From a virus (lineage: Duplodnaviria > Caudoviricetes): DNA of 64,000 bases. Where the stretch lies: positions 32,001-96,000 of the IMG/VR virus record IMGVR_UViG_3300029288_000097, one strand, 5' to 3'. The notes under the pieces were generated by a model that was given only the letters and a program-made list of their open reading frames with translations, made no database searches and had not been told where the DNA came from. Below, piece after piece: positions 589 through 22,824 of this stretch (its first letter is position 1; the number at the start of each line of letters is the position of its first letter). Position numbers and translations under genes: made by a program.

Positions 589-3434
589 TCTTCTTCCTCA
601 AACTTCGGTTCTATTATGCTCCATTGATGGGTATTAACTCCAAACTGTGAGCGCACACGTGCCAGGTCGATTTTGACACACATCTCTTGGATTATAGGAT
701 GGTCAGTAGGAAATCCCAACACTGGGCTATTACCACTATTGGCACAGTCTTTCAACAGGTTTCGGAAAGCAATATCATTCATCAATGCAGCTGATCCGGC
801 TGAAGTTAAATAAGATCGAATCTCAGACCTCCATCGGTTTATATCGAAGTAAGCTTTTTCACGATCTACAAGATCAAGCACAAATACGCTTCCCTGCAGT
901 GATGTATTCCTACGTGTGTTCATAATGATAGCAGAATCAGTAGCACGGAACAATTCATGCAGAGCAGATGATCCATAAGTAAGTTTACGTGCATCAGGAT
1001 CAGCAGCAAAAATGACACTAATAAAGCGGTCTTTACGAAGTGGGAACTCTAAGCCATACTCTTTGTAGATAAAGTACAGAACGTACAGACCGTACAGAAT
1101 AGCGGAGAATCCCCATCGTTTACGCTCAGTAACATCAGTCGAGCATTCAGCTTCGATCTTGTCGATACACTGTTCCATGATTCGCTTACAACGGTCAAGG
1201 TTATTGATAGTCCACTGAAGTATGATGGTTCCAAGCCATCCATCATGATCGCGTGAATGTAGCCAGCGCATTCTACGAGCCATAGCTACACGATCTTCAC
1301 CTTCCAGTGCTTTGATCTTGTATAGCCAATCGTGATTTATCGTTATGGAGAATATACGTTGGACGGCTGCATCTTCAGTTAAGGGATGCTCACCCGCGAT
1401 ACACATTGGGGCTTGAAATTGATCTGTGCAGACAGAGCGATCACTGCGCCCTGAACTACCACTGAGTCCATCCCATACCGAACGAATTACACCCAGGAAT
1501 TGTCCACCTTTAGATTTGCCATCATCTGGCCGTGGATTATCCCTGAAGTCATCAATAATGAGTGGGTATAGATTATTCGATGTTAGATGGCTATGCATGG
1601 CGAAGATGGTTGTTCGCTCATATGCTTTACCAATCTCGCAGCCATAATGAGGCCCAAGCATCTTAAACAAATGGCTTTTACCGGAACCAGCCAGACCATA
1701 AACAACGAGTACAGGATAACCCTCAACACGCTTCCTGAAAAATGCTGACATTGGACACCCGGCAAACCATGCCAGAGTAGGCCATATAAAGTGTGGCTCA
1801 TGATACTGACTATAGTATTCTCCGAATGTCTGAAGATACTCCTTGATGTCCTGCTCTTCAAGCTCTAAACGTGGGTTAGGTAAAGCTGTATCTGTGCCAC
1901 TGCCTGTCCATATATATTGCTCACTGGGCTGATCTGGTAGTAACAATACAGGTTTCTTTTTATGAACATCTAACCAGCCATAGTATGTAGACTCATGGAT
2001 TTCTGTTTCAGGACAATGCTCAGCTAACCATGCAATATACTGGGGCCAAGCTTTGGGTTGAAACACAGATATACCCGTAGGCATATGATTGATACGTGCA
2101 AAAGCTTTCGGATCGATATGTCCGGCAGGAGTGATCTCAACACGTTTTACCGGCTGTCCAGCTATTACTATGTCAGCCAGCCAGACAACATCATTCGTGT
2201 GGGCTTTGTGCAATTTACCAACTATATGCACTACAAAGTTGGAAAAACAAGTATGTTGGGCATTGGTTAAGTGAGTAAAAGTGCCTTTTTCAAAGAATGG
2301 ATCATCACCAACATCAGTCAAACTACCTTTAATTGGATCATAATTTTCCGGCTTAAAATCGATGCCCATTTTTGAGCAGTAAGCCTTCTTCATTCTGACC
2401 CAATAATCAACTATAGCCTCAGCATCAGGAGCTAAAGCAGCATAATTTGAGCGTAAACTTCTGAGCTTAGTAAGGTCTTGCTCATCGTAGGTGGTATCTA
2501 CTTCTGTATCACGAAACTGGTCATCACTGAGTAAGTTAGCAAGTTCCTTAAATACATTCTTACAAGCTTCTCGATTGATGCCTCCCTTACGTATTGTGCC
2601 AGCTAGATCGAGCATCATATAATGCCGTGAGCCTTCAGCCCAATCTTCTGAACCCTGGAATAGACACAACAATGCAAAGACTATGGATTTTGGAGCTGTG
2701 TTTTCGTTGACATGCTCAAACATTTTTTTGAGCTGTTTCATTGAATAGGTCGGAGGCTCTTTACCATCACGCTTGTTATAATGCGTGTTTACTTGGAAAT
2801 AAGTGCTGTACTCAGGCTTTACGTTAAAGGTGCCTGGTATACGCATGAGACGTGAATGTGAGCACACTTCCATGTCAGCTCCATAATACATTGCAAGCTG
2901 ACATAGTAGTGGAATAATGTGTTCTGCATACCGTTTCGGGTCTTTATCTACCTTAAACGGTGTATCAAGCTTATAGTAACCCTGAAGACCATCCTTACTG
3001 GATTCTACCCATACCGAAGCAGCATCTACACTTTTCATGTCAGCCAAAAATGCTTTGCCTGGCACTTGAATGTACTTAAAGAGATCAACGTCGAACCAGA
3101 GTGCAGGTATGTCTAAGATGTTTGTTTGTTTGCGCTTACCTTCACGAGTGTCTGTAGTACCGGTGGAAAAGTACATATTATACTTATGGCTGTGGACTCG
3201 CCACCACTCGGTATACAATTTTTCCGGGGCCGAATATGCATGCGAAATCATTGGCCCATCTTTTTTCTTTGTTTGGGCGGGTGCGCCTTCTACTTCATCA
3301 GCTTCGCAATCTGTCTCTGTTAATGTTTCTCCTGGCTTACTTTTCGATGTAGTTATGTATCCGTTCGGAGAGTCCCCAAAAAGAAAGCGCAAAAACGTAA
3401 TGGCTTTCTCGGCATCGGTTGTTAAAGTTGCCAT
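585..3434 (-). CDS. Primase-helicase (RepB/AEP-type primase, PriCT-like region, DUF927-like P-loop helicase)
   Basis: ALWFDVD, GLQGYYKL and SRLMRIPGTFNVK primase motifs; EGSRH; Walker A GLAGSGKS and Walker B LIIDD. Confidence 0.85.
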   Translation of the reverse strand: MATLTTDAEKAITFLRFLFGDSPNGYITTSKSKPGETLTETDCEADEVEGAPAQTKKKDGPMISHAYSAPEKLYTEWWRVHSHKYNMYFSTGTTDTREGKRKQTNILDIPALWFDVDLFKYIQVPGKAFLADMKSVDAASVWVESSKDGLQGYYKLDTPFKVDKDPKRYAEHIIPLLCQLAMYYGADMEVCSHSRLMRIPGTFNVKPEYSTYFQVNTHYNKRDGKEPPTYSMKQLKKMFEHVNENTAPKSIVFALLCLFQGSEDWAEGSRHYMMLDLAGTIRKGGINREACKNVFKELANLLSDDQFRDTEVDTTYDEQDLTKLRSLRSNYAALAPDAEAIVDYWVRMKKAYCSKMGIDFKPENYDPIKGSLTDVGDDPFFEKGTFTHLTNAQHTCFSNFVVHIVGKLHKAHTNDVVWLADIVIAGQPVKRVEITPAGHIDPKAFARINHMPTGISVFQPKAWPQYIAWLAEHCPETEIHESTYYGWLDVHKKKPVLLLPDQPSEQYIWTGSGTDTALPNPRLELEEQDIKEYLQTFGEYYSQYHEPHFIWPTLAWFAGCPMSAFFRKRVEGYPVLVVYGLAGSGKSHLFKMLGPHYGCEIGKAYERTTIFAMHSHLTSNNLYPLIIDDFRDNPRPDDGKSKGGQFLGVIRSVWDGLSGSSGRSDRSVCTDQFQAPMCIAGEHPLTEDAAVQRIFSITINHDWLYKIKALEGEDRVAMARRMRWLHSRDHDGWLGTIILQWTINNLDRCKRIMEQCIDKIEAECSTDVTERKRWGFSAILYGLYVLYFIYKEYGLEFPLRKDRFISVIFAADPDARKLTYGSSALHELFRATDSAIIMNTRRNTSLQGSVFVLDLVDREKAYFDINRWRSEIRSYLTSAGSAALMNDIAFRNLLKDCANSGNSPVLGFPTDHPIIQEMCVKIDLARVRSQFGVNTHQWSIIEPKFEEEE

Positions 3435-3468
3435 GTATTGGTTGACCTCACTCCTTTGGGTAATTGAT

Positions 3469-3567
3469 ATTATAGCTCACTCATAAATGTTTGTGGAGTC
3501 TTTTTTAGACCGATCTCGAAAAACTGGTAGTTGTACTAGGCTTGCCACTACTATTATGCGGTATAAT
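3469..3567. promoter_or_regulatory. Divergent promoter region with an imperfect CTGGTA-N4-TACTAG palindrome (3524-3539)
   Basis: TATAAT on the minus strand at 3469-3474 (TCCACA 17 bp upstream) and TATAAT on the plus strand at 3562-3567. Confidence 0.55.
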
Positions 3568-3576
3568 GGATATGCG

Positions 3577-5076
3577 ATGAGAAGACCTCCATGGTGGGCA
3601 GCCCAAAAAGAAGCCTATAAACGAGCAAAGACTCTTATACATGATGGTATCCCGCTCCTTATGGAAATGGGGACCGGCAAAACACGCATAGCAGTGCAAC
3701 TACTTGAGTATCTATTTAAGTATTATGATGTGCGGCTAGTCTATGTAGTAGCTCCATTAGCTGCCATGCATGTATGGGTAGAGAACTGGCACGAATGGGC
3801 TAAGACTCCAGTAGCCTTTATCGATTTACATGATACTGGTAGTGAGGGTATCAGAGAAGCAGTGCGTTTGTCAAAACAAGGCTCACCGGTCATCTGTTTG
3901 GTCAATTATGAGACTGCTTGGTTCCTGGGTAAAAAGCGGGTCAAGGTTAAATTAGACGGTAAAACACGAACTCGTTTGAAGCATGTAGATACTACGATGG
4001 GCGACATCAAATGGGATATGGGTATTCTCGATGAGTCCACGGCTATCAAACATCCTGGCTCTAAAGTATCATCGTTCTTCTGCCGGACAATGAAATCACG
4101 CACACGATTCCGTATGATCCTCACTGGCAGTGCTTATATCAAACGGCCACTCGATGTGTATGCACAGATCAAGTTTTGCTGCACCAATCCTATATTTCCG
4201 TGGGATTATGCTGGTTTTAAGGCAGAATACTCTATACCACATCCTACGATACCACAAGCGATCCTGAGTTATCGTAATCTGAATGACTTTGTAAAACGCT
4301 TAGCCAGTTGTGCAATTCTCCTCAAAAAAGAAGATGTGCTGGACCTACCACCATTTGTGCACGAAACACGTAAGATCACGTTGAGTGCCAAGAGTCGAAA
4401 AATATATAACGAGATCACCGAGGAAAATTATGCTTATCTGGAAGAGCTTGAAGCCGATGGCATAGAAATCACAGCCTCACATGTATTCGCTGTTCAACGA
4501 AAGCAGATGCAGATTACATCAGGTTTCATCTATCCTGACCTTATACAGATCGGCGAGGGTGATGATGCTAAAATGATAAAGCCGGACGCTGTGCGCCTTG
4601 GCACCGAAAAGGTTAATGTGCTCTTGGATATAATTGACAAACGTGCCGGGGAGCCCACTATCATTGTAGTGCAGATGGATGAAGAAGAGGATATTGTATC
4701 GGAGGCATTGACCAAAAGTTTTGGCTTTACTCCAAAGATACTTAATGGTAGTGTTAAGGGTGCAGCTCGCAGGCATGAAATGATTCGAGCAGCTGCGCGT
4801 GAAGGTGACCCTTATTTTGTGGTCAAAGAATCAGTAGTAGCTCGTGGTGTAGATATGCGGGCATTCGACATGACCATATTTTACTCACACACGCCAGATA
4901 CCGAAGACTACGATCAGATGATGTCTCGTAACCATCGTGGTGGACAAACAAAGAATATCACGTATATGCACCTACTATGTGAGAACACAGTTGACTTACG
5001 AATTATGCGTATATTGCGCAATGATATGAACCTGGCTCGTCAGATCGAGCGTGATTGGAGAGCTTTGATTAAATGA
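3577..5076 (+). CDS. SNF2-family (SF2) helicase/ATPase
   Basis: LLMEMGTGKT, ILDEST, MILTGS and SRNHRGGQ motifs; start moved to ATG 3577 because the upstream part of the ORF overlaps promoter elements. Confidence 0.9.
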   Translation: MRRPPWWAAQKEAYKRAKTLIHDGIPLLMEMGTGKTRIAVQLLEYLFKYYDVRLVYVVAPLAAMHVWVENWHEWAKTPVAFIDLHDTGSEGIREAVRLSKQGSPVICLVNYETAWFLGKKRVKVKLDGKTRTRLKHVDTTMGDIKWDMGILDESTAIKHPGSKVSSFFCRTMKSRTRFRMILTGSAYIKRPLDVYAQIKFCCTNPIFPWDYAGFKAEYSIPHPTIPQAILSYRNLNDFVKRLASCAILLKKEDVLDLPPFVHETRKITLSAKSRKIYNEITEENYAYLEELEADGIEITASHVFAVQRKQMQITSGFIYPDLIQIGEGDDAKMIKPDAVRLGTEKVNVLLDIIDKRAGEPTIIVVQMDEEEDIVSEALTKSFGFTPKILNGSVKGAARRHEMIRAAAREGDPYFVVKESVVARGVDMRAFDMTIFYSHTPDTEDYDQMMSRNHRGGQTKNITYMHLLCENTVDLRIMRILRNDMNLARQIERDWRALIK

Positions 5077-9602: not shown

Positions 9603-10425
9603 CGGTGAATCTTTTCACTTCGGTTACTCCAGGGCAGCCAAGTTCATGGAATGTCCTCATGCTTATGAGGAAACATATGTAAACGGCCATCGCACTCCAG
9701 GTGGCACAGCCATGCGCCGGGGAACTGCTTATCACGCCACACTTGAAGGATTACTTAACTTCAAGATAAACAGAAACGGTGAGCATTACCCCATAGAAAA
9801 GACAGAACGCTATGCATGGAAAAATGCACTCAAAGAAGATTTAGCTGAAGGAGAAGCTACACGTGTGGTGCAAGCTTCTCGTTTCTACCATAGCCGTATG
9901 TACCATCGACATAATCCGATAGCTGTAGAAGTTGACTTTGATTTCTGGAAGGATGATGTCAACTATACTGGCAAAATTGACCTTATCGAGTGGCAAGACG
10001 TAAAAGGTAAACGCAAGATATTTATACGTGACCATAAGTTCAGCTATGATACGTGGGCTGAATCCCGAGCAAAGTTTGGTGTGCAGCCTATTATTTATCA
10101 GTGGGCTTGGGAAGAGCAACTGAGCAAAGAGTATGCTGGTACTGAGTTTGACGGGCTTGAATATGGTGGTTTCAGCTATAATATAATTCGGCTGTTTCCT
10201 ACTCCTGTGATCCAAGACATCTTCATCAAGCCTTGCACTACAACGGCCTCAGCTTGGTGGAGTAAACAGTTGAAGATCATGGCCGAGTGTATCAAAAACG
10301 GTATATTCTTCGCTATTCCTGGCGATAAGAAATGCCAATACTGCGATCACAAGAAGCGATGCAGTCCGACTATTTACACTGTCAAGTCTACATTGATAGG
10401 CGACATAAGCGAGGATGAAGCATAA
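9493..10425 (+). CDS. PD-(D/E)XK (Cas4/RecB-like) exonuclease with an Fe-S Cys staple
   Basis: YS..AKFMECP, RGTAYH, TGKIDL, DHKF, QP..Y and CQYCDHKKRC. Confidence 0.88.
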   Translation: MTSKQSKSSSNVSTEETPGNPRVISHPEEEGFTLKINGESFHFGYSRAAKFMECPHAYEETYVNGHRTPGGTAMRRGTAYHATLEGLLNFKINRNGEHYPIEKTERYAWKNALKEDLAEGEATRVVQASRFYHSRMYHRHNPIAVEVDFDFWKDDVNYTGKIDLIEWQDVKGKRKIFIRDHKFSYDTWAESRAKFGVQPIIYQWAWEEQLSKEYAGTEFDGLEYGGFSYNIIRLFPTPVIQDIFIKPCTTTASAWWSKQLKIMAECIKNGIFFAIPGDKKCQYCDHKKRCSPTIYTVKSTLIGDISEDEA

Positions 10426-12383
10426 TGGAAAAGTTTCGATTGACTCCAACCTTTTTATCCAAGTACAAAGAACGCACTCCTCCATTTGGATTTGGTGGTC
10501 TGGGTGAACTGGTCTACTACCGCACTTATTCAAGAGTAAAAGCAGATGGCTCCAACGAGGATTGGACTGATACATGTCAGCGTGTAGTTGAGGGCTGCTA
10601 CAACATGCAAAAAGCTCATATCGAACAGTATAATCTTGGGTGGGATGGTAACAAAGCTCAATGCTCTGCCCAAGAGATGTTTGATCGAATGTGGACAATG
10701 AAGTTCTTACCTCCGGGTAGAGGCTTATGGGCTATGGGCTCTGCCATCACCGAAGAACGAGGATGCTTTGCTGCACTTAATAACTGTGCTTTTGTCAGTA
10801 CACGAGACCTGGCCTCAGATTTTGCTACGCCATTCTGTTTTCTTATGGATGCGTCTATGCTTGGCGTAGGAGTTGGTTTCGATACACTTGGTGCCAACCT
10901 TGTGACTCTAAAACAGCCACGCGAAGCAGTAGAGACATTTACTATCCCTGATTCACGTGAGGGATGGGTAGAATCTGTCTACAAGCTACTCCACAGCTAT
11001 GCTAAGGGTGGCCCTAGAGCTGAGTTTGACTACTCTCAGGTTCGTCCGGCAGGACTTCCCATCAAAGGTTTTGGTGGTATATCATCCGGCCCGGAGCCAC
11101 TGGCTGAACTACACGAAGAGATTAGACTTCTCTTGGATAGCTTTGTAGGAAAACATGTCAGTAAACGTGCCATTGTAGACATAATGAACCTGATAGGTAA
11201 ATGTGTCGTTGCTGGAAATGTCCGTCGAACCGCTGAGATGGCTATGGACTTCGATATGGACATCGAATACCTGATGTTGAAAGACTACAAAAAGAATCCT
11301 GATCGGGCAAAACATGGCTGGGCTTCAAATAACTCAGTGAATGTTTCAGTAGGAGAAGACTACAAGCTGGCTGCTAAGTTTACAGCAGAAAACGGAGAGC
11401 CTGGCTACCAATGGCTGGAAAATGCACAACAATTCTCACGCATGAATAATGGACCCGATGGTAAAGATCATCGAGCAGCCGGTGTAAATCCTTGTGGAGA
11501 GCAAACACTTGAATCCTACGAGCTTTGTTGCTTGGTAGAGACATTCCCTCATCGCTGTGAAAACTTATCCGACTATCAACGCACACTTAAGTTTGCCTAC
11601 CTCTACGCTAAAACAGTAACTCTGGGGCAAACACATTGGCCGGAAACCAATCGTATTCTTTTGCGGAATAGACGCATAGGATGTTCCATGTCCGGCATTG
11701 CACAGTTTATCACTGTCAATGGCATACATGAGCTGAAAAAGTGGTGTGAGGAAGGCTACAAGACTCTCCAGTATTACGATGATGTCTACAGTGATTGGCT
11801 GTGCATACCTCGGTCAATTAAGATCACCAGCATAAAGCCAAGTGGCACGGTAAGCTTATTGGCCGGAGCTACACCTGGTATGCACTATCCTGAAAGTCGC
11901 CATTATATTCGTAGAATACGTCTAGCAAAGTCAAGTCCATTAGTTCCTCCGCTGGTTAAAGCTGGCTACAAAGTCGAAACATGTATAGGGCAGGAAGAGT
12001 CCACCGTAGTGGTCGAAGTTCCAGTTCGTATCGAGGAAGAGATTCGCACTGTAAGTGAAGTAACCATGTGGGAGCAGTTGCACTTGGCCTCTTTTCTACA
12101 ACGTCATTGGGCAGATAATCAAGTATCTGTTACTGTTACGTTCAATCCTAAGACAGAGGGAGCCGAGATTGCAAACGCTCTGAACTATGTTCAGTATATG
12201 CTTAAGGGTGTATCATTCTTACCCTACAGTGTCGGAGCTTTCCCACAGATGCCTTACGAAAAAATTACTGAAGCACAGTACTTTGAGATGTCTGCTAAGC
12301 TGAAACAACTTGATTTCTCAGGCATCAATGACAATAAAGCTGACGTAGAACGATTCTGCGATGGCGATAAATGCGTGGTCTAG
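10425..12383 (+). CDS. nrdJ: Class II (adenosylcobalamin-dependent, monomeric type) ribonucleotide reductase
   Basis: YYRTYSR, FLPPGRGLW, LNNCAF, NPCGEQ, SIKPSGTVS and C-terminal CDGDKC. Confidence 0.95.
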   Translation: MEKFRLTPTFLSKYKERTPPFGFGGLGELVYYRTYSRVKADGSNEDWTDTCQRVVEGCYNMQKAHIEQYNLGWDGNKAQCSAQEMFDRMWTMKFLPPGRGLWAMGSAITEERGCFAALNNCAFVSTRDLASDFATPFCFLMDASMLGVGVGFDTLGANLVTLKQPREAVETFTIPDSREGWVESVYKLLHSYAKGGPRAEFDYSQVRPAGLPIKGFGGISSGPEPLAELHEEIRLLLDSFVGKHVSKRAIVDIMNLIGKCVVAGNVRRTAEMAMDFDMDIEYLMLKDYKKNPDRAKHGWASNNSVNVSVGEDYKLAAKFTAENGEPGYQWLENAQQFSRMNNGPDGKDHRAAGVNPCGEQTLESYELCCLVETFPHRCENLSDYQRTLKFAYLYAKTVTLGQTHWPETNRILLRNRRIGCSMSGIAQFITVNGIHELKKWCEEGYKTLQYYDDVYSDWLCIPRSIKITSIKPSGTVSLLAGATPGMHYPESRHYIRRIRLAKSSPLVPPLVKAGYKVETCIGQEESTVVVEVPVRIEEEIRTVSEVTMWEQLHLASFLQRHWADNQVSVTVTFNPKTEGAEIANALNYVQYMLKGVSFLPYSVGAFPQMPYEKITEAQYFEMSAKLKQLDFSGINDNKADVERFCDGDKCVV

Positions 12384-12392
12384 GAGGTATCA

Positions 12393-12953
12393 ATGCTGAT
12401 CGTAGGTATATGTGCTGATATGCAGCACGGTAAAGATACTGTAGCTCGAATGATGATAGAACTGGCAGCAGAACATAATGTTATTGCTGCCCGTCGAGCT
12501 ATGGCTGATCCTCTCAAAGAGGAGATCGCTGAATGTTTTGCTCCGATGTTGAATACGACCAGGGAAGAATTACTTCGTCAGATGAATACTACTGGTGAGA
12601 AAGAACGCTGGCGTCTTGTCATGCAATGGTGGGGCACAGAGTTCAGACGAACTGAAGATACACAGTACTGGGTTAAACGTATGTACGATTGGGTAACAGC
12701 TTTCCAAGGTGGTATTGTATGTATACCCGACATACGTTTTCAAAATGAAATTGATCTTGTAAAGCATTTTAGTGGCTATATGATTCGAGTCAATCGACCT
12801 GGATTCCCGGCTGATGATGCCCATGCATCTGAACAGGAATGGAAGCAGTTCAATGGCTGGGATCAGGTCATCGAGAATGATGGCACTGAAGAGGAGTTGA
12901 AAAATAAGCTGGTTGCAGTGTATACTCTACTTGAGGGTAGAGGCCAGTTCTGA
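12393..12953 (+). CDS. Deoxynucleoside monophosphate kinase
   Basis: GI....HGKDT, ADPLK, MQWWGTE, DIRFQNE and HASE motifs. Confidence 0.9.
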   Translation: MLIVGICADMQHGKDTVARMMIELAAEHNVIAARRAMADPLKEEIAECFAPMLNTTREELLRQMNTTGEKERWRLVMQWWGTEFRRTEDTQYWVKRMYDWVTAFQGGIVCIPDIRFQNEIDLVKHFSGYMIRVNRPGFPADDAHASEQEWKQFNGWDQVIENDGTEEELKNKLVAVYTLLEGRGQF

Positions 12954-13375
12954 TGTATGCGATCTTGCCGTACAACACCTTCATATGGGCTGGTGAATGC
13001 TATCCTGAGTATCTATCAGTCGGAGCCGAGGTAACTGGGTATCACTATAATGACAAACGCATTGTTCGATTCCCCATTACCAAAATAGAACGTCTTGAAC
13101 CTACACGATTGATCCAGTTGAAGTTTACTGATCCGAAGCTTAAGATACAGCGTTTCAGTGGCTTAACGAAAGTCCTGACTGTAGGAGGACCAACTGAGTG
13201 TTACAAAGCTCCGTATTTGATTGGTGTATGCCAGAATAATCCAAGACAACTTATGATGTTCAACGTAATGGAACTGACTGAGTTGACCGAGGAAGTACCG
13301 GTACTCAGGTTAGAATGGGAAGACCAGAACTACTTCTTATGGGCAGAAGGTGTACTTGTTGGGAGCCTTAAGTAG
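12953..13375 (+). CDS. Stand-alone Hint (intein-like) domain protein with catalytic residues replaced
   Basis: Follows the mini-intein pattern along its length (ILPYNTFI, LSVGAEVTGY, RFSGLTKVLT, VPVLRLEWE..NYFLWAEGVLVGS) but lacks Cys/Ser1, the block-B His and terminal His-Asn. Confidence 0.7.
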   Translation: MYAILPYNTFIWAGECYPEYLSVGAEVTGYHYNDKRIVRFPITKIERLEPTRLIQLKFTDPKLKIQRFSGLTKVLTVGGPTECYKAPYLIGVCQNNPRQLMMFNVMELTELTEEVPVLRLEWEDQNYFLWAEGVLVGSLK

Positions 13376-14972
13376 CAAAATAATAGTTGATAAGCTTATC
13401 AACTTATTCATAAATAACCCGGAAAATGGTAGAAAGATCGCGCAAAGTTTTGGGCTATGGGAGACTTTGCGCGATACTGTATTAAAGCCAATCCACCTGG
13501 CTTTATGCCGGAAAAATGTAAACTGGTTCATCGAGTATATCAGTCAAGATACCGAAACACAGGCTTACATTATTCAGCAGGGATTCCATAAAGAGTGGCA
13601 AGCTCTCATCTCTCTTTATGATCGTGTTCTTATTGCGGCTCCCAGAGGTCATGGAAAGTCTGTCCAGAACATTGGTAGGATCATCTGGGAACTCGGACGT
13701 AACCACAACATTCGTATCAAAATTATAGGAAGTTCTGACGATAAAGCTAAAGAAATCTTGGGCCTGGCACGTGAACTTATATCGAAGTCAGAGCGTGTGC
13801 ATGAAGTATTCCCTGATTTAGTTATCAATACAGAGCGTGGTGACACGCAGACCAAGTTCTTTGTTGTGCGTGATATTCCTTCCCGAGACCCGTCTGTAGA
13901 AGCATCTGGTGTGCTTTCCACTGGTGCTGGTGGCCGTGCTGACTTACTACTCTGTGACGACGTTGTAGACCTTAAAAACTCGGTTATTAACCCGGCACAA
14001 CGCGAACAGGTTATCAAGGCAATCAAAGAGACATGGTTCTCCCTGGTATCATCAACTGGTAAGATCGTATGGATTTGTACTCCTTACCATATTGCTGATG
14101 CTACTCATAACCTAAAAGATACTGGTGCATTCAAAGTTTGGTGGACACCAGCTATTCGATATGAGAAGCATTACGATGATACGGGTAATCTAATTCTTGA
14201 CGATGAAACAGGACAGGCTAAGGTCACAAAGATTATTCTGTGGCCGGACAAATGGTCCGAAGAAAAGCTTGAAGCTCGTAGACAAGAACTTGGCACTCGT
14301 GTATTTACTCGTCAGTATTTGCTTAATGCGATGTCTGATGAAGAACGAACCTTCCCGGAAACTGCTCTTGAGCGAAGTTTTGATAGTCTGCTCGCCGATA
14401 TAGGCGATGGTGTAAAGGAAGACTGGCCGACATTTGGTGGGTGTGACTTGGCTTCAGCCCTGGGTAAAAAGAACGCATTCTCTGTCATATGGACTATCGC
14501 AAAGAACCCAAATGATGGTAGACTGTATTTGAAAGAAATCTGGAGACGTAGAGCCCAATTCAATGACATCATGGCCGAACTAAAACGGCAGTGTAAAGTT
14601 CATCGCTGGAGACTGGCTTACGTTGAAAATAACTCATTCCAGCAGGCAGTTGTAGATGCTCTTGAAGCCGAGGATAAGTCTTTACCTATCAAAGGATTTA
14701 CAACTGGAGCTTATAACAAAAAGCACGAAGAGATCGGACTACCCGGTCTTAGTATAGCGTTTGAGAAAAAGAACTTTGCTCTTCCGGCAGCCAAGTTCCC
14801 CTTATCGCCAGATGACACAAGCTCTCTTGCGATTTTTATGGGAGAACTTCGTGCACATCCAGGAGGCGAGTTCTCCGATACTATTATGGCTCTATGGTTT
14901 GCTTATCGAGCTGCCATCGAATGTGGTAGTGATTTTGAGGACGCTTATATCGATGCAATAGCAGCAGCTTGA
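13350..14972 (+). CDS. terL: Terminase large subunit
   Basis: APRGHGKS Walker A, GGRADLLLCDD, ICTPYH, GGCDLA, YVENN and SDTIMALW motifs; start is GTG 13350 or TTG 13356/13359. Confidence 0.95.
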   Translation: MYLLGALSSKIIVDKLINLFINNPENGRKIAQSFGLWETLRDTVLKPIHLALCRKNVNWFIEYISQDTETQAYIIQQGFHKEWQALISLYDRVLIAAPRGHGKSVQNIGRIIWELGRNHNIRIKIIGSSDDKAKEILGLARELISKSERVHEVFPDLVINTERGDTQTKFFVVRDIPSRDPSVEASGVLSTGAGGRADLLLCDDVVDLKNSVINPAQREQVIKAIKETWFSLVSSTGKIVWICTPYHIADATHNLKDTGAFKVWWTPAIRYEKHYDDTGNLILDDETGQAKVTKIILWPDKWSEEKLEARRQELGTRVFTRQYLLNAMSDEERTFPETALERSFDSLLADIGDGVKEDWPTFGGCDLASALGKKNAFSVIWTIAKNPNDGRLYLKEIWRRRAQFNDIMAELKRQCKVHRWRLAYVENNSFQQAVVDALEAEDKSLPIKGFTTGAYNKKHEEIGLPGLSIAFEKKNFALPAAKFPLSPDDTSSLAIFMGELRAHPGGEFSDTIMALWFAYRAAIECGSDFEDAYIDAIAAA

Positions 14973-15012: not shown

Positions 15013-16794
15013 ATGGGAATCTTCAATTTTGCAGATAACGGAAAACGGGAACCAGCAGCCCCATGGACACGTAAAGTGGGTAAGATGGTTGCACGCCTAT
15101 TCGATATAGACTTAGGCTCTCAGCCCGTGCCACGTATAAATGACAGAGAAACTTTCACTGAGGCCGGAGTAGATGTTGGCACATCGGTTATATCGGCTGA
15201 TCTATGGAAAGTTTATAATGATCGCAAGAGCGTTTGGAAAGACATCGAAGAGATGGATCATAATTGTGAGATCACATCTACAGCTCTTGACATAGTAGCC
15301 GACTGTAGTGTTTCATACTCGGATGACGCCTCTAACGTAATCTTCCAAGTCAGTTCGGACAATGCTGAAGCCCAAAAGATACTCCGGGATTGTGCACAGC
15401 GTCTACATATCGAACGTGAGATATGGCAGCTGGCACGTAATGCGTTCAAGCATGGTAACGAGTTCCGTGAGCTAATTCTCGACCGAACTGTATCACCTTA
15501 TCGAATCAAGTCTCTCAAACAGACTGTTTCATACCATATATGGCCGAAGACAAATGACCATGGCGATAAGATTCCTGGCTGGGTTGTAGTTACTGACAAA
15601 GATGTCACTATGACTGGAGGTAAAGAGCTAGAAGAATGGCAGATTGTGCCATTCCTTTATGGCGATATTGCCGGGACTTTGGCTGTTCCTCCACTGGCAT
15701 CTGCTCGTAAAAACTGGATGCGTTTGGCGACAATGGAAGACAACATGGTCGTCAACCGTCTTACACGTAATGATCGCATTGTACATCGTGTTCCTGTCAA
15801 AGACTCCTGGACCAACAATGAGATCATGAGCACGATTAAGCGTTACAAAGATGCCATTACAAAAAGACGTTTAGTCAGTAGTGAAGGCTCAGTCACTAAT
15901 GTTGATAACCCTCTGACAGCTGATTCCGACTTTTATGTGCCTGACGATGGATCAGGTAAAGGTGGAGTCTCCATGCTGTCACCTAATAATGCACAGCTTG
16001 GCAACCTGAACGATGTCTATTATCATCGTGAGCGATTGATTATCAGGCTTAAGGTGCCAATGTCTTATCTGCAGATCATGTCGAGTCAGAAAACTCACTT
16101 GACAGCAGGTAAAGGTGCTTCCAACGTTGAACTTCAGTTTGCTCGAACTTTACGTATGTTGCAAGGTTCCATTAAAGATGGTTTGCGCCGAGTATTCGAT
16201 ATTGAATTGATGTTGCATGGCATTGCTCCAACACCTGATCTATATACTATCGATATGACCAAGATCAATACATCTGATCTCCAGAGTGATGCTCAGATCG
16301 AATTGACCTATGCACAGGCAGCAGTATACTTTATCGAAGCGTTTGGTGGAGCACTACCACCAGAGCTACTGGCATCCAAGTATATGCGCCTGACAAAAGA
16401 ACAGCAAGCTTTAATGGACAAGTTCCTTGAAGCAGACGCCAAGCGTATATGGAAAGCCAAAGTAAAAAGTATAGAGGCCGGAGCCAAAGCAGTTGAAGCC
16501 AAGTCTCAATTGATAAAAGACCGCACGCCAGGAGATGATCCTACAGGTAGCGGCAATCAGAACAAGTCTCTTGCTTCCAGGTCTACTGAGCAAAAAGGCA
16601 CAAAATCAGCTCCATCGCAAGGTGTTGATCTTGAGGATGTAGTAGACCTGTTTGCAGTATTTTATGACGGGATCGCTGACAAACTTCGGAAAGAAGGCCA
16701 GGATATTCCGGTTTTCTCTGAGGCAGACCGCGAAGAAATCAGGCAATCAATCCTGGAGCGGGTAACTGAGGATGGAGAACTTAGCATATCCTGA
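15013..16794 (+). CDS. Portal protein, T4 gp20-like
   Basis: Follows TerL; EITSTALDIVAD, L.TMED.MVV.RLTR, DFYVP, DVYY....L...LKVP.SYL and ELQFAR motifs; extended -10 TGTGATATACT upstream. Confidence 0.9.
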   Translation: MGIFNFADNGKREPAAPWTRKVGKMVARLFDIDLGSQPVPRINDRETFTEAGVDVGTSVISADLWKVYNDRKSVWKDIEEMDHNCEITSTALDIVADCSVSYSDDASNVIFQVSSDNAEAQKILRDCAQRLHIEREIWQLARNAFKHGNEFRELILDRTVSPYRIKSLKQTVSYHIWPKTNDHGDKIPGWVVVTDKDVTMTGGKELEEWQIVPFLYGDIAGTLAVPPLASARKNWMRLATMEDNMVVNRLTRNDRIVHRVPVKDSWTNNEIMSTIKRYKDAITKRRLVSSEGSVTNVDNPLTADSDFYVPDDGSGKGGVSMLSPNNAQLGNLNDVYYHRERLIIRLKVPMSYLQIMSSQKTHLTAGKGASNVELQFARTLRMLQGSIKDGLRRVFDIELMLHGIAPTPDLYTIDMTKINTSDLQSDAQIELTYAQAAVYFIEAFGGALPPELLASKYMRLTKEQQALMDKFLEADAKRIWKAKVKSIEAGAKAVEAKSQLIKDRTPGDDPTGSGNQNKSLASRSTEQKGTKSAPSQGVDLEDVVDLFAVFYDGIADKLRKEGQDIPVFSEADREEIRQSILERVTEDGELSIS

Positions 16795-19647: not shown

Positions 19648-22600
19648 ATGGCAGAAACACTGTTAGCAATGGCCCGAGCATTACCGCTCTTGCTCGAAGA
19701 CCAAGGGATTAAGAAACGTAAAGACGTTAGCCCCAAGGAAGGCGAGAAAGAATACGGTGATGTGACCTTTGCTGATCCAACGAACAAGAAGTATCCGTTG
19801 GATTCTGAGAAGCACGTCAAGGCTGCCTGGAGCTATATTAACATGCCTCGGAATGCAGGTAAGTATAGTTCCAAGGACTTGGGTGCTATCAAGGGCCGAA
19901 TCAAAAGAGCTGCCAAGAAGTTCGGAGTTGCTATATCGGAAGATCAGGACTTCGGTTATGATATTCCGATAACCCAGGATCATTACCACTTGTATGGTTC
20001 GGTGGAAGATGTCCTTACCCGTATCAATCTGGCGTTTCACCAGTGGAGACGCACGCTAGAAAGTGAGATCGAGTATCGTTACAGCTCAATACTGGGCGTT
20101 TACACCGATCATATCGTTTTCTACACAGATAATTGGCGGGAGGGATTGATCTACTACACAGTCAGCTATACGGTTGACACCACCAATGGGAGTGTCACCA
20201 TTCTCAATGACGTTAATCGCGTGGATGTGACTGTGATAGTTACCGATCTTGCCAGTGTTGGTGACGATGGGGATGGCAATGCTCCAACTCAAACCGCTAC
20301 GGAGGACAAAGCGATGGCTGAGGACAAGAAAACCCCAGAAGTCGAAGCACAGGATGGAAGTACCAGCACGACAGTTGTTAAGACTGATGCCCCTGTGGGT
20401 ACCAGTGCTGACAGCCCGACTGTTGAACAGCCTAAGACTGATGCTTCGTCTGCTGGACCATCCGTACCGGATGCCTCAACTGAGGCCACCAGCGGCTCTC
20501 CGGTCGAGAAGTCTGATGACATTCCGGTCGGTCCGAGCGGTAGCGATGGTAGCAGCACCGGCACGGTAGCGGGTGCACTCTCTGATGGTGGAGCTGGCAC
20601 AAAGCAAGCACAGGAGTTCGAGGGCAAAGACGAGTTCTTTGTTCAATCGGATAACTATGATGCTGCAAACCAGCCCATGAGTTACATCAAACTCCAAGCA
20701 GTCGAGGAGAAAGATGGTAAAAAACTCATGACCATCCAAGGCATTGCCACTAGGGGTGACATTGTGAACTCCAAGGGGCAGGTCTACCCAACCGAAGTAT
20801 GGCAAGAAAACTTGCCGAGAATGAACGAATTGGCAACTCAAGGTAAGTTCCTTGGGAAGCTGGAACATCCGAAAGTTGAGCAAGGGCTGGTTGACGCTGC
20901 TCTTAAGTTCAACAAGTTCTGGATACAGAACAATGACGTTTGGTTTGAGGCAGTAGTTATGCCTACGGAACCGGACGGCAAGAATCTGCAGACCATGATC
21001 GAATCGGGTGTGCAGGTTGATCTTAGCTCTCGTGGCTATGGTCAATTTGTTCAGTGTGATTGGCGCGGAAAGCAGCGACAAGTCATGCAAAAAGGCTTCA
21101 TCTGCACAGCTATCGATGCTGTATGGATGGGTGCCAGCACCGGTTCCGGTGTAACAAGCGTCACATATCAAAGCGACTCAAAAACGGTCGCGGATCAAGG
21201 AGACAGTCCAGTGGACAAAGAGAAGAAGGACGAAACCCAGGTTCAGTCTGCTGAGGATCGTGCAGCAGCTATCCGAGCAAAGGGTGCCTTCGATGAGACT
21301 AAAAAGTGCCTCCTTCAGCAGTCCGGCCTTAGCACGGACGGGCAGAGGGCATATCAGGCCGCCCTTGATAAGGCGACCGATGGTAGCATTGAGTCTCTGA
21401 TGGGTGCATCCGATGCAATCTTGCCGAGTTTACAGTCGGTATTCCCGGTAACTCAGTCTGAGACGACCGAGGAAGCCGCAACTCAGTCCGAGACCTACTC
21501 TCCGGTATTCTTCTCCAAGCAGAATGCCGAGGAGTTGGCACCGAAGACAGTTGGCGAGATGATCGACAGAATGGTACGCGACCTGCCGGAGCGTTATGAG
21601 GGTCAGTCTGATCCGGTGCATAAGGTGCCTTCACACCTTACCAGCCCGAGAGAAGCCTGCCGTCTGATGCTTCAGAATGTCGCTCGACTTACTGCGCCTT
21701 CATTCCATGGCCCATCCGCAGCTCGCGGACTCTTGGCCCTGGAACAGGGCAAGATTGACAGAGCACAGGACATCCTCACTCAGGGTGCCGAGTATGCTCT
21801 GCAGTCACTTCCAACCGGAGCAACTACGGTTGCTGGAGACGGTGCTCCGCTCTCCAATTATCTGATCTTCCCGCTCATTCGCCGGGTGTTCCCGCAGTAC
21901 ATCCTGAACGAGATCGCTTCGATCCAGCCTATGGATAGGCCGAACGGTAAGATTTTCTGGCTTGACCAGTATCGAACCGAAGACCCGTCTGCAGGTGAGG
22001 TCACCCGAATCGATCTCAACACATCGTCCAGCCCGTTCAATACGAGCTATGCCGATCAGGACACTGAAGGCGAAACTGCCAAGATCATCCGCATGAAACT
22101 GTCCAGTCAGTTGATCGAAGCGCATACCAAGAAATTGGGTGCAGCCTGGTCAATTGAAGAGATGCAGGATTTGAGAGCCTATCATGGTCTCGATGCTGCA
22201 CAGGAGCTTCTTGCAGGTGTGGCACGTGAGCTGGCATTGGAGATCAATGCTGAAGTTCTCAACGACATGATTCTTCAGGCTTCCGCTGGAGCCCTGGAGT
22301 TTGGAACCACAATGCCGACAACTGGTTTTGATAACCAGCCGGAGTGGGATGCTTACATCTGGAACTATGTGTCCAAGATGGAAAACATCATCTTCAGCAA
22401 GCGCAACGGTGGGATCACTCACCTGATCTGCGGTATGGACGCCGCTCTCGCTCTCGCTAAGTCGAACCGAATGGCAATCTCGGTTGCCACTGGTGGCGAT
22501 GGTGCAATGAACGAGCAGTATCCGGGTGTGGCCGTCATGAATCTGGTTTCTGGCACCGGTCAGAGATACCGTATTCTGAAGACCAACTTCTGGGGTAGTG

Positions 22601-22824
22601 GCACCACCAATGGTGCTAAGATCATGGCGTTCCGAAGAGGAACCGAGTGGAATGACGTTCCTTACGTCTACGCGCCGTACGCGGACTTCACCACTCCGAT
22701 GTTCACTGACCCGCTGACATTCGATCAGAAGCAGGGTGTTATGTCTCGCTTCGCCAAGAAGTGCGTGACCCCTGATGCTATCGGAACCATCGAGGTCAAG
22801 AACCAGACTGGCGCACTCGTCTAA
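19648..22824 (+). CDS. Head polyprotein: DUF6582-like domain, acidic linker, T4 gp21-like prohead protease, scaffold, gp23-like major capsid protein
   Basis: FADP.NKKYPLD.E.HV.AAWSY; GKLEHP / SSRGYG / DAV protease motifs; PLIRRVFP..I..EI.SIQPM..P.G.IF, KKL.A.WS.E..QDL.AYHGLDA..EL and YVYAPY gp23 motifs. Confidence 0.92.
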   Translation: MAETLLAMARALPLLLEDQGIKKRKDVSPKEGEKEYGDVTFADPTNKKYPLDSEKHVKAAWSYINMPRNAGKYSSKDLGAIKGRIKRAAKKFGVAISEDQDFGYDIPITQDHYHLYGSVEDVLTRINLAFHQWRRTLESEIEYRYSSILGVYTDHIVFYTDNWREGLIYYTVSYTVDTTNGSVTILNDVNRVDVTVIVTDLASVGDDGDGNAPTQTATEDKAMAEDKKTPEVEAQDGSTSTTVVKTDAPVGTSADSPTVEQPKTDASSAGPSVPDASTEATSGSPVEKSDDIPVGPSGSDGSSTGTVAGALSDGGAGTKQAQEFEGKDEFFVQSDNYDAANQPMSYIKLQAVEEKDGKKLMTIQGIATRGDIVNSKGQVYPTEVWQENLPRMNELATQGKFLGKLEHPKVEQGLVDAALKFNKFWIQNNDVWFEAVVMPTEPDGKNLQTMIESGVQVDLSSRGYGQFVQCDWRGKQRQVMQKGFICTAIDAVWMGASTGSGVTSVTYQSDSKTVADQGDSPVDKEKKDETQVQSAEDRAAAIRAKGAFDETKKCLLQQSGLSTDGQRAYQAALDKATDGSIESLMGASDAILPSLQSVFPVTQSETTEEAATQSETYSPVFFSKQNAEELAPKTVGEMIDRMVRDLPERYEGQSDPVHKVPSHLTSPREACRLMLQNVARLTAPSFHGPSAARGLLALEQGKIDRAQDILTQGAEYALQSLPTGATTVAGDGAPLSNYLIFPLIRRVFPQYILNEIASIQPMDRPNGKIFWLDQYRTEDPSAGEVTRIDLNTSSSPFNTSYADQDTEGETAKIIRMKLSSQLIEAHTKKLGAAWSIEEMQDLRAYHGLDAAQELLAGVARELALEINAEVLNDMILQASAGALEFGTTMPTTGFDNQPEWDAYIWNYVSKMENIIFSKRNGGITHLICGMDAALALAKSNRMAISVATGGDGAMNEQYPGVAVMNLVSGTGQRYRILKTNFWGSGTTNGAKIMAFRRGTEWNDVPYVYAPYADFTTPMFTDPLTFDQKQGVMSRFAKKCVTPDAIGTIEVKNQTGALV

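Follow-up and report, generated by a model that had tools for sequence, protein, structure and literature searches.

In a clade of uncultured phages of about 100-115 kb with T4-like portals, the gene for the large terminase subunit (terL) is preceded by a small gene encoding a stand-alone Hint domain of the mini-intein type, represented here by P0001, in which the residues for splicing have been replaced. We are close to certain that this gene is a domesticated Hint domain that no longer splices. The most economical reading of its role, because of its translational coupling to terL, its co-divergence with TerL and the genes that relatives carry in the same slot, is that the protein assists the terminase as a partner without catalytic activity, its position being equivalent to that of the small terminase subunit (TerS). 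From these observations we infer binding to the terminase and a role in packaging, and we put the probability of this reading at roughly one in two.

Gene organization upstream of terL

The DNA that was analyzed, called the window below, is a stretch of 64,000 nt from an IMG/VR virus record of 113,976 bp that is rated 100% complete by CheckV. Near-identical DNA is present in landfill and wastewater metagenomes. An ORF of 140 codons with a coupled ATG had been noted ahead of terL in a preliminary description of the window, and both were present as described (Table 1). The terL gene of the window has no in-frame ATG ahead of the Walker A motif. Its start was assigned to a TTG at −17 relative to the end of the Hint-like gene because in two related loci (L011 and L040) a TTG at that position is the only start available. 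A GTG at 13350 was considered as well and was ruled out since the codon is not conserved in the relatives. Gene calls for terL differ among these relatives; in L001 the gene was called from a downstream ATG, giving a protein of 516 aa, and in others a length of 537 aa was obtained.

Table 1. Positions of the Hint-like gene, its neighbors and its conserved segments in the window
Feature	Position	Strand	Basis and remarks
Hint-like gene P0001	12953..13375	+	ORF and translation; 140 aa, free-standing splicing-dead mini-Hint (intein fold)
TGATG junction	12951..12955	+	Read from sequence; TGA of dNMP kinase gene overlaps ATG of Hint-like gene
dNMP kinase gene, usual 5' neighbor	12393..12953	+	PF21448, E 6e-17; phrog_139, E 2e-37
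terL, 537 aa	13359..14972	+	phrog_38, E 2e-64; start is TTG conserved in relatives
Overlap of Hint-like gene end and terL start, 17 nt	13359..13375	+	Sequence read and junctions of relatives; translational coupling
Shine-Dalgarno-like GAAGGT	13346-13351	+	Within conserved A-E-G codons of the Hint-like gene
T4-like portal gene (gp20 family), 3' of terL	15013..16794	+	PF07230, E 1.7e-30
Block B equivalent, residues 69-79 (SGLTKVLTVGG)	13157..13189	+	Alignment census and structural register
Family-specific loop G-x-C-x-x-N-P-[KR]-x-L, residues 91-100	13223..13252	+	Census; AF2 model
Block F/G equivalent, residues 122-138	13316..13366	+	Alignment census; invariant W122, G133, L135 and G137

The beginning of terL contains some further features. 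A palindrome of 20 nt occurs at 13385-13404, and a strong hairpin, whose stem has about 15-17 bp and includes a perfect 12-nt inverted repeat, is found at 13435-13477, about 75 nt inside the coding region; the 161-nt region around it has a folding z of −2.9. A version with an 8-bp stem apparently exists in L005, and not in L001 or L003. The hairpin could modulate terL translation or could be due to chance. Downstream of the portal gene lies a single ORF of 1058 aa (19648-22824), the counterpart of which in L104 has 955 aa and matches Peptidase_S77 and Gp23.

The Hint fold of P0001

The structure of P0001 was predicted with AF2 using 23 homologues, which gave a model with a pLDDT of 94.1 and a pTM of 0.87. 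The model aligned with the NpuDnaB mini-intein (4o1r) with a Z-score of 16.2 and an rmsd of 2.0 Å over 132 of the 140 residues. There were 30 chains from inteins, BIL domains, Hedgehog and Vint proteins that matched the model with Z-scores of at least 8, while the next match had a Z-score of 2.8. A shallower model built from five sequences had a pLDDT of only 70 and the Hint match was already clear with it. The preliminary description had traced a mini-intein pattern from one end of the protein to the other, and its block assignment agrees with the structural register, which pairs residue 4 of P0001 with the first residue of inteins and residue 138 with the final one. Outside the fold there are three residues at the N-terminus and two at the C-terminus. 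The predicted model also shows the horseshoe shape of Hint domains that had been expected on the basis of this pattern.

Sequence profiles recovered related domains as well. A profile of the family aligned by hhalign with the Hint_2/PT-HINT protein P0024 with a probability of 89.7% and an E-value of 1.8e-6, whereby the family sequence WAEGILVGS paired with FAEGILVHN of P0024, and the solved BIL2 domain (6y75) was matched with an E-value of 0.0015. No family member matched a Pfam Hint model at E=0.1 or better. P0001 itself gave no match to Pfam, NCBIfam or PADLOC models, and in the PHROGs it produced only weak matches (E 0.07 and 0.22) to two short families labelled 'TerL'. A search of solved structures with the single P0001 sequence did not yield a match either. 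Judged by the predicted model and the profile alignments together, the Hint resemblance of P0001 is confirmed to be real and not a chance similarity.

Homologues were collected from sequence databases by two types of searches, of which the word-indexed search returned four and the exhaustive profile search returned 21 clusters at 50% identity. With one exception, P0024 with a length of 369 aa, all clusters consist of free-standing proteins of 94-166 aa. The GenBank phage collection contained no homologue of P0001, and the sole TerL match in that collection was distant (P-RSP2, 31% identity). Other small Hint-only proteins in phages are found in BFVD and the ESM Atlas.

Loss of catalytic residues and a conserved loop

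The catalytic positions were examined in 49 unique family sequences, some positions being counted in fewer aligned members. The position of intein residue 1 (residue 4 of P0001) is occupied by Ile in 39, Val in two, Leu in two and Met in one of 45 aligned members. In block B the Thr (T72) is retained in 48 of the 49 sequences, and the His position (residue 75) has Leu (40), Val (4), Tyr (3) or Met (2) and never His. The Asp position of block F (residue 119) carries Glu (22), Arg (13), Gln (4), Leu (3) or other residues. At the penultimate His position (residue 137) all 49 members have Gly, and the terminal Asn position (residue 138) is taken by Ser (26), Thr (13), Asn (3) or Glu (2). The family C-terminus thus reads LVG[S/T] where inteins show VHN. 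The two residues that follow position 138 are variable and do not include a fixed +1 nucleophile. No exteins were found; the gene has its own start and stop codons, and fused forms were not encountered, which is weak evidence. P0001 cannot splice or cleave, since exteins are missing and other residues have taken the places of the position-1 nucleophile, the His of block B, the Asp of block F and the His-Asn pair at the end. The loss of the catalytic residues, originally noticed in the window protein only, is thereby upheld across the whole set of unique members.

Full or almost full conservation is seen at G24, T72, G79, G91, C93, W122, G133, L135, V136 and G137. Two of these, G91 and C93, belong to a loop (residues 91-100) that the AF2 model places between strands 88-92 and 100-121, at the site where inteins have an endonuclease insertion or a split site. 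Within this loop C93 is present in 49 of 49 sequences, G91 in 45 of 49, N96 in 39 of 49 and P97 in 37 of 43. The loop, with the consensus G-x-C-x-x-N-P-[KR]-x-L, is a candidate functional surface of the protein. The most divergent member that was found (L105:2561-3007, from a locus with a TerL that is 49% identical) keeps G-P-C-A-M-N-P-R-Q and ends in LLLCQ. As L105 maintains the loop and not LVG[S/T], conservation is stronger in the loop than at the C-terminus, where the splice junction used to be.

Conservation next to terL

To the extent that relatives carry the Hint-like gene, it is located immediately 5' of terL in each of them, which amounts to about 35 unique loci. These include the assemblies L001-L009, the IMG/VR loci that have upstream DNA and a TerL of at least 58% identity, the distant locus L105, and the weakest profile matches P0026 and P0022. 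The expectation that homologues would be conserved beside terL was thus borne out. In nearly all loci the stop codon of the Hint-like gene overlaps the terL start, either as ATGA (−4), through a TTG (−17) or through an ATG (−8 to −17). An exception is L108, with a gap of 91 nt between the two genes. In most loci the Hint-like gene also overlaps the dNMP kinase gene on its 5' side. The kinase gene is no longer adjacent in L008 and L105, and the Hint-like gene still abuts terL there.

The sequences point to purifying selection. For four orthologous loci pS was 0.62-0.85, which is saturated, against a pN of 0.09-0.30, and the dN/dS of the Hint-like gene was around 0.1 where it could be computed, similar to that of the adjoining kinase gene. 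None of the 49 unique copies is frameshifted and all are intact. Neutral decay, which the preliminary description had put forward as a possible contrary outcome, was thus not seen. Pairwise identities of the Hint-like protein and of TerL are correlated with r=0.92, a value that was not reached in any of 2000 permutations of a Mantel test. The Hint-like protein diverges faster than TerL, with an identity of about 30% where TerL holds 60-70%, and the family is conserved down to about 25% identity. TerS genes typically also evolve faster than TerL.

In a TerL tree, 27 loci with the Hint-like gene and three loci without it (L104, L049 and L106) are united in a single clade (support 100/100). The branching at its base is compatible with a single gain as well as with a later loss. 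In both L104 and L049 the kinase gene is the direct neighbor of terL. In L104 the kinase gene (2235-4629 for the region with terL) overlaps terL, and in L049 (1559-4126) it ends about 160 nt ahead of terL. The kinases of these two loci have 243-270 aa, as compared to 186 aa in the window. No Hint sequence was found elsewhere in the L049 record, which is 39% complete. The N-terminal region of TerL looks alike whether or not a clade member has the Hint-like gene. The three members without the gene indicate that these phages either do not need its function or obtain it by other means.

Genuine inteins occur in the same clade. They interrupt terL near residue 100, in the Walker A region, in L008 (5371-7908), L047, L048 and L051 and in the proteins P0040, P0042, P0045, P0071 and P0080; LAGLIDADG domains are present in some of these inteins, and one of them, with about 140 aa, is a mini-intein. 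The terL gene of the window has no intein. The class II ribonucleotide reductase (RNR) is 815-974 aa long in L003 (2424-4871), L004 (1947-4871) and L007 (740-3664) and 652 aa in the window (10425-12383), and the L007 protein has a weak LAGLIDADG_3 match. The long genes probably contain RNR inteins, present in some clade members and absent in others.

The question of the small terminase subunit

In more distant relatives the position 5' of terL is occupied by another type of protein. In L054 and L065, with TerL identities of 29-31%, an HTH protein with matches in two TerS families, phrog_1889 and phrog_2606, is encoded directly 5' of terL, and in L054 this gene overlaps the terL start. HTH-like basic proteins are also encoded in this slot in L027, L059 and L064. 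The complete genome to which the window belongs gave no match to seven TerS models (PF11053, PF03592, PF05119, PF16677, PF11123, phrog_1889 and phrog_2606), nor did phmmer searches of it with the TerS-like proteins of the outgroup as queries. Eight small ORFs of the window were compared to the PHROGs and no TerS match was obtained. The missing TerS is weak negative evidence because sequence searches easily overlook TerS proteins and the ORF scan covered a selection of the ORFs.

The Hint-like protein resembles TerS in that its gene is adjacent to terL and, in almost every locus, overlaps the start of terL. It gave no match to TerS families in Pfam, PHROG or NCBIfam, has no HTH and is all-beta in the model. 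With a pI of 5.3-7.9 it is not basic. Hint domains are normally monomeric and TerS proteins form rings. Repeat arrays of the pac type were searched for in and near the Hint-like gene, where only short two-copy matches were detected. Two roles had been suggested for the protein in the preliminary description. The idea of a packaging accessory in the TerS slot has gained from the adjacency and overlap with terL, the co-divergence, the HTH TerS proteins in the slot of relatives and the negative outcome with the seven TerS models. For the other idea, a decoy or inhibitor of inteins or of Hint-based host proteins, nothing was found in its support.

A bolder subset of the terminase-partner reading is that the Hint-like protein is a functional TerS, in which case an intein-derived all-beta domain would have displaced the ancestral HTH TerS and would both recognize DNA and activate TerL. 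We consider such a complete replacement a tentative idea and rather doubtful.

Alternative explanations

A possible, although not a probable, explanation is that the domesticated Hint protein has no relation to packaging and serves in host takeover, in counter-defence or as a partner in nucleotide metabolism, the gene being a mere passenger of the operon upstream of terL. Overlap with the upstream dNMP kinase gene in most loci would fit with this, as would the three clade members that are without the gene and the lack of TerS-like features in the protein. Linkage to terL nevertheless survives in L008 and L105, where linkage to the kinase is broken, and the overlap with the terL start and the tight co-divergence with TerL also speak against this explanation. 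Moreover, PADLOC and other family collections gave no match, and the distribution is not patchy or mobile as in accessory genes. A quite different possibility is that some chemistry persists, with Cys93 acting as nucleophile together with Thr72 and Trp122, either through a class 3-like thioester or by cleavage or ligation in trans, for example of TerL. In class 3 inteins, too, position 1 has no nucleophile and an internal Cys takes over, and in the P0001 family Cys93 and Trp122 are invariant and Thr72 is present in 48 of 49 members. The conserved residues are not at the W-C-T positions of class 3 (B:12, F:4, G:5), however; by our own block counting Cys93 precedes block F and Trp122 belongs to block F instead of block B. 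Class 3 inteins further require both the block-B His, which never occurs in the family, and the terminal Asn, which is mostly replaced. There are no exteins to be processed, and Cys93 is in the loop of the endonuclease insertion or split site, which in known inteins is far from the catalytic cleft. Residual chemistry is accordingly improbable.

Terminases are hot spots for inteins, and genuine inteins circulate in the terL and RNR genes of this clade, which could suggest that the Hint-like gene is a decaying or selfish relic without a function for the phage, such as an escaped intein or a leftover of a terL intein. This explanation is very improbable and already largely refuted by the intact state of all 49 unique copies, the low nonsynonymous divergence next to saturated synonymous sites, the vertical co-divergence with TerL and the lack of an endonuclease domain. 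The Hint-like protein showed no detectable similarity to the inteins that clade members carry in terL or RNR genes, and the domestication is therefore old. We give equally little credence to the possibility that the Hint ORF and terL form a single gene, joined by programmed +1 frameshifting or split by a sequencing error, so that TerL would carry an N-terminal Hint domain. It could be raised because terL of the window has no ATG start and its frame is already open over the last 62 nt of the Hint ORF, stop codon included. Many relatives, however, have a plain ATGA stop/start overlap, and there are several loci whose terL frame becomes open no more than 7-17 nt ahead of the stop and has a start codon at that point. 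L108 has an intergenic gap of 91 nt, the aligned junctions have no slippery motif in common, and contigs from independent samples span the junction without indels. A fused long form was not found, which carries little weight.

Comparison with known Hint proteins and a possible role

The terminase-partner reading can be put in mechanistic terms. The Hint-like protein would be a domesticated and vertically inherited component of the packaging module, translated just ahead of TerL from the coupled, overlapping frame. The loop G-x-C-x-x-N-P-[K/R]-x-L, together with the conserved strand at the C-terminus, may serve to bind TerL and perhaps also DNA, and such binding could regulate or initiate packaging.

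Class 1 mini-inteins such as NpuDnaB, gp41-1 and NrdJ-1 have the same fold over the whole length (Z-scores of 14.9-16.2, rmsd 2.0-2.5 Å, 121-134 residues), with the same size and layout of blocks A, B, F and G as P0001. Unlike these proteins, P0001 is not inserted in a host protein and is devoid of the Cys/Ser at position 1, the His, the Asp, the His-Asn pair and the +1 nucleophile. The two groups also differ in the loop with the invariant Cys, which is conserved in the P0001 family whereas inteins have a variable linker, an endonuclease insertion or a split site there. By sequence the closest proteins are those of the BIL/PT-HINT/Hint_2 type, such as BIL2 of the Tetrahymena BUBL locus (PDB 6y75/6tmm) and the metagenomic P0024; for relatives of this type the E-values were 2e-5 with Foldseek, 0.0015 with the profile (BIL2) and 1.8e-6 with hhalign (P0024). 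BIL and PT-HINT domains are non-mobile Hint domains. They are parts of larger proteins and keep the cleavage residues (P0024 ends in HN), in contrast to the P0001 family, which is stand-alone and inert.

Splicing has also been lost in the yeast HO endonuclease and other 'escaped' intein genes, which derive from inteins and survive as independent genes. PI-SceI and HO bind DNA in part through their Hint domain, and domain I of PI-SceI matched P0001 with Z-scores of 12.3 for the shallower and 12.8 for the deeper model. In HO and the escaped genes a LAGLIDADG nuclease domain supplies the function, whereas P0001 is a bare Hint domain of 140 aa without a nuclease. The HTH-type TerS proteins (phrog_1889 and phrog_2606) share with P0001 the position 5' of terL, the start overlap, a similar size and the faster divergence than TerL. 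Their structure is different: TerS combines an HTH with a helical or beta-barrel oligomerization core, and the all-beta Hint fold of P0001 is unrelated to this and matches no TerS family. Full-text searching of the literature yielded nothing beyond inteins of the ordinary kind in terL; a terminase accessory with a Hint fold was not among the results. Within the Hint superfamily, the P0001 family is a new variant that has no annotation and is linked to terL unusually closely.

The general view of inteins is that they are selfish elements. To our knowledge, clear retention of the intein Hint fold in a non-splicing role is rare, and the cases we know of keep a nuclease or the cleavage reaction. 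Here a bare and inert Hint domain is translationally tied to the DNA-packaging ATPase across a lineage of environmental phages. The roughly 21 clusters at 50% identity, for which no Pfam, PHROG, NCBIfam or PADLOC model exists, provide a new family for annotators. If the protein binds TerL, terminases would have a subunit of a new type and intein domestication a further case, and it would explain why TerS goes undetected in such genomes. If it is indeed the TerS of these phages, it would be the first one with a fold unrelated to all known TerS proteins, and the first intein fold recruited into the essential machinery of virion assembly.
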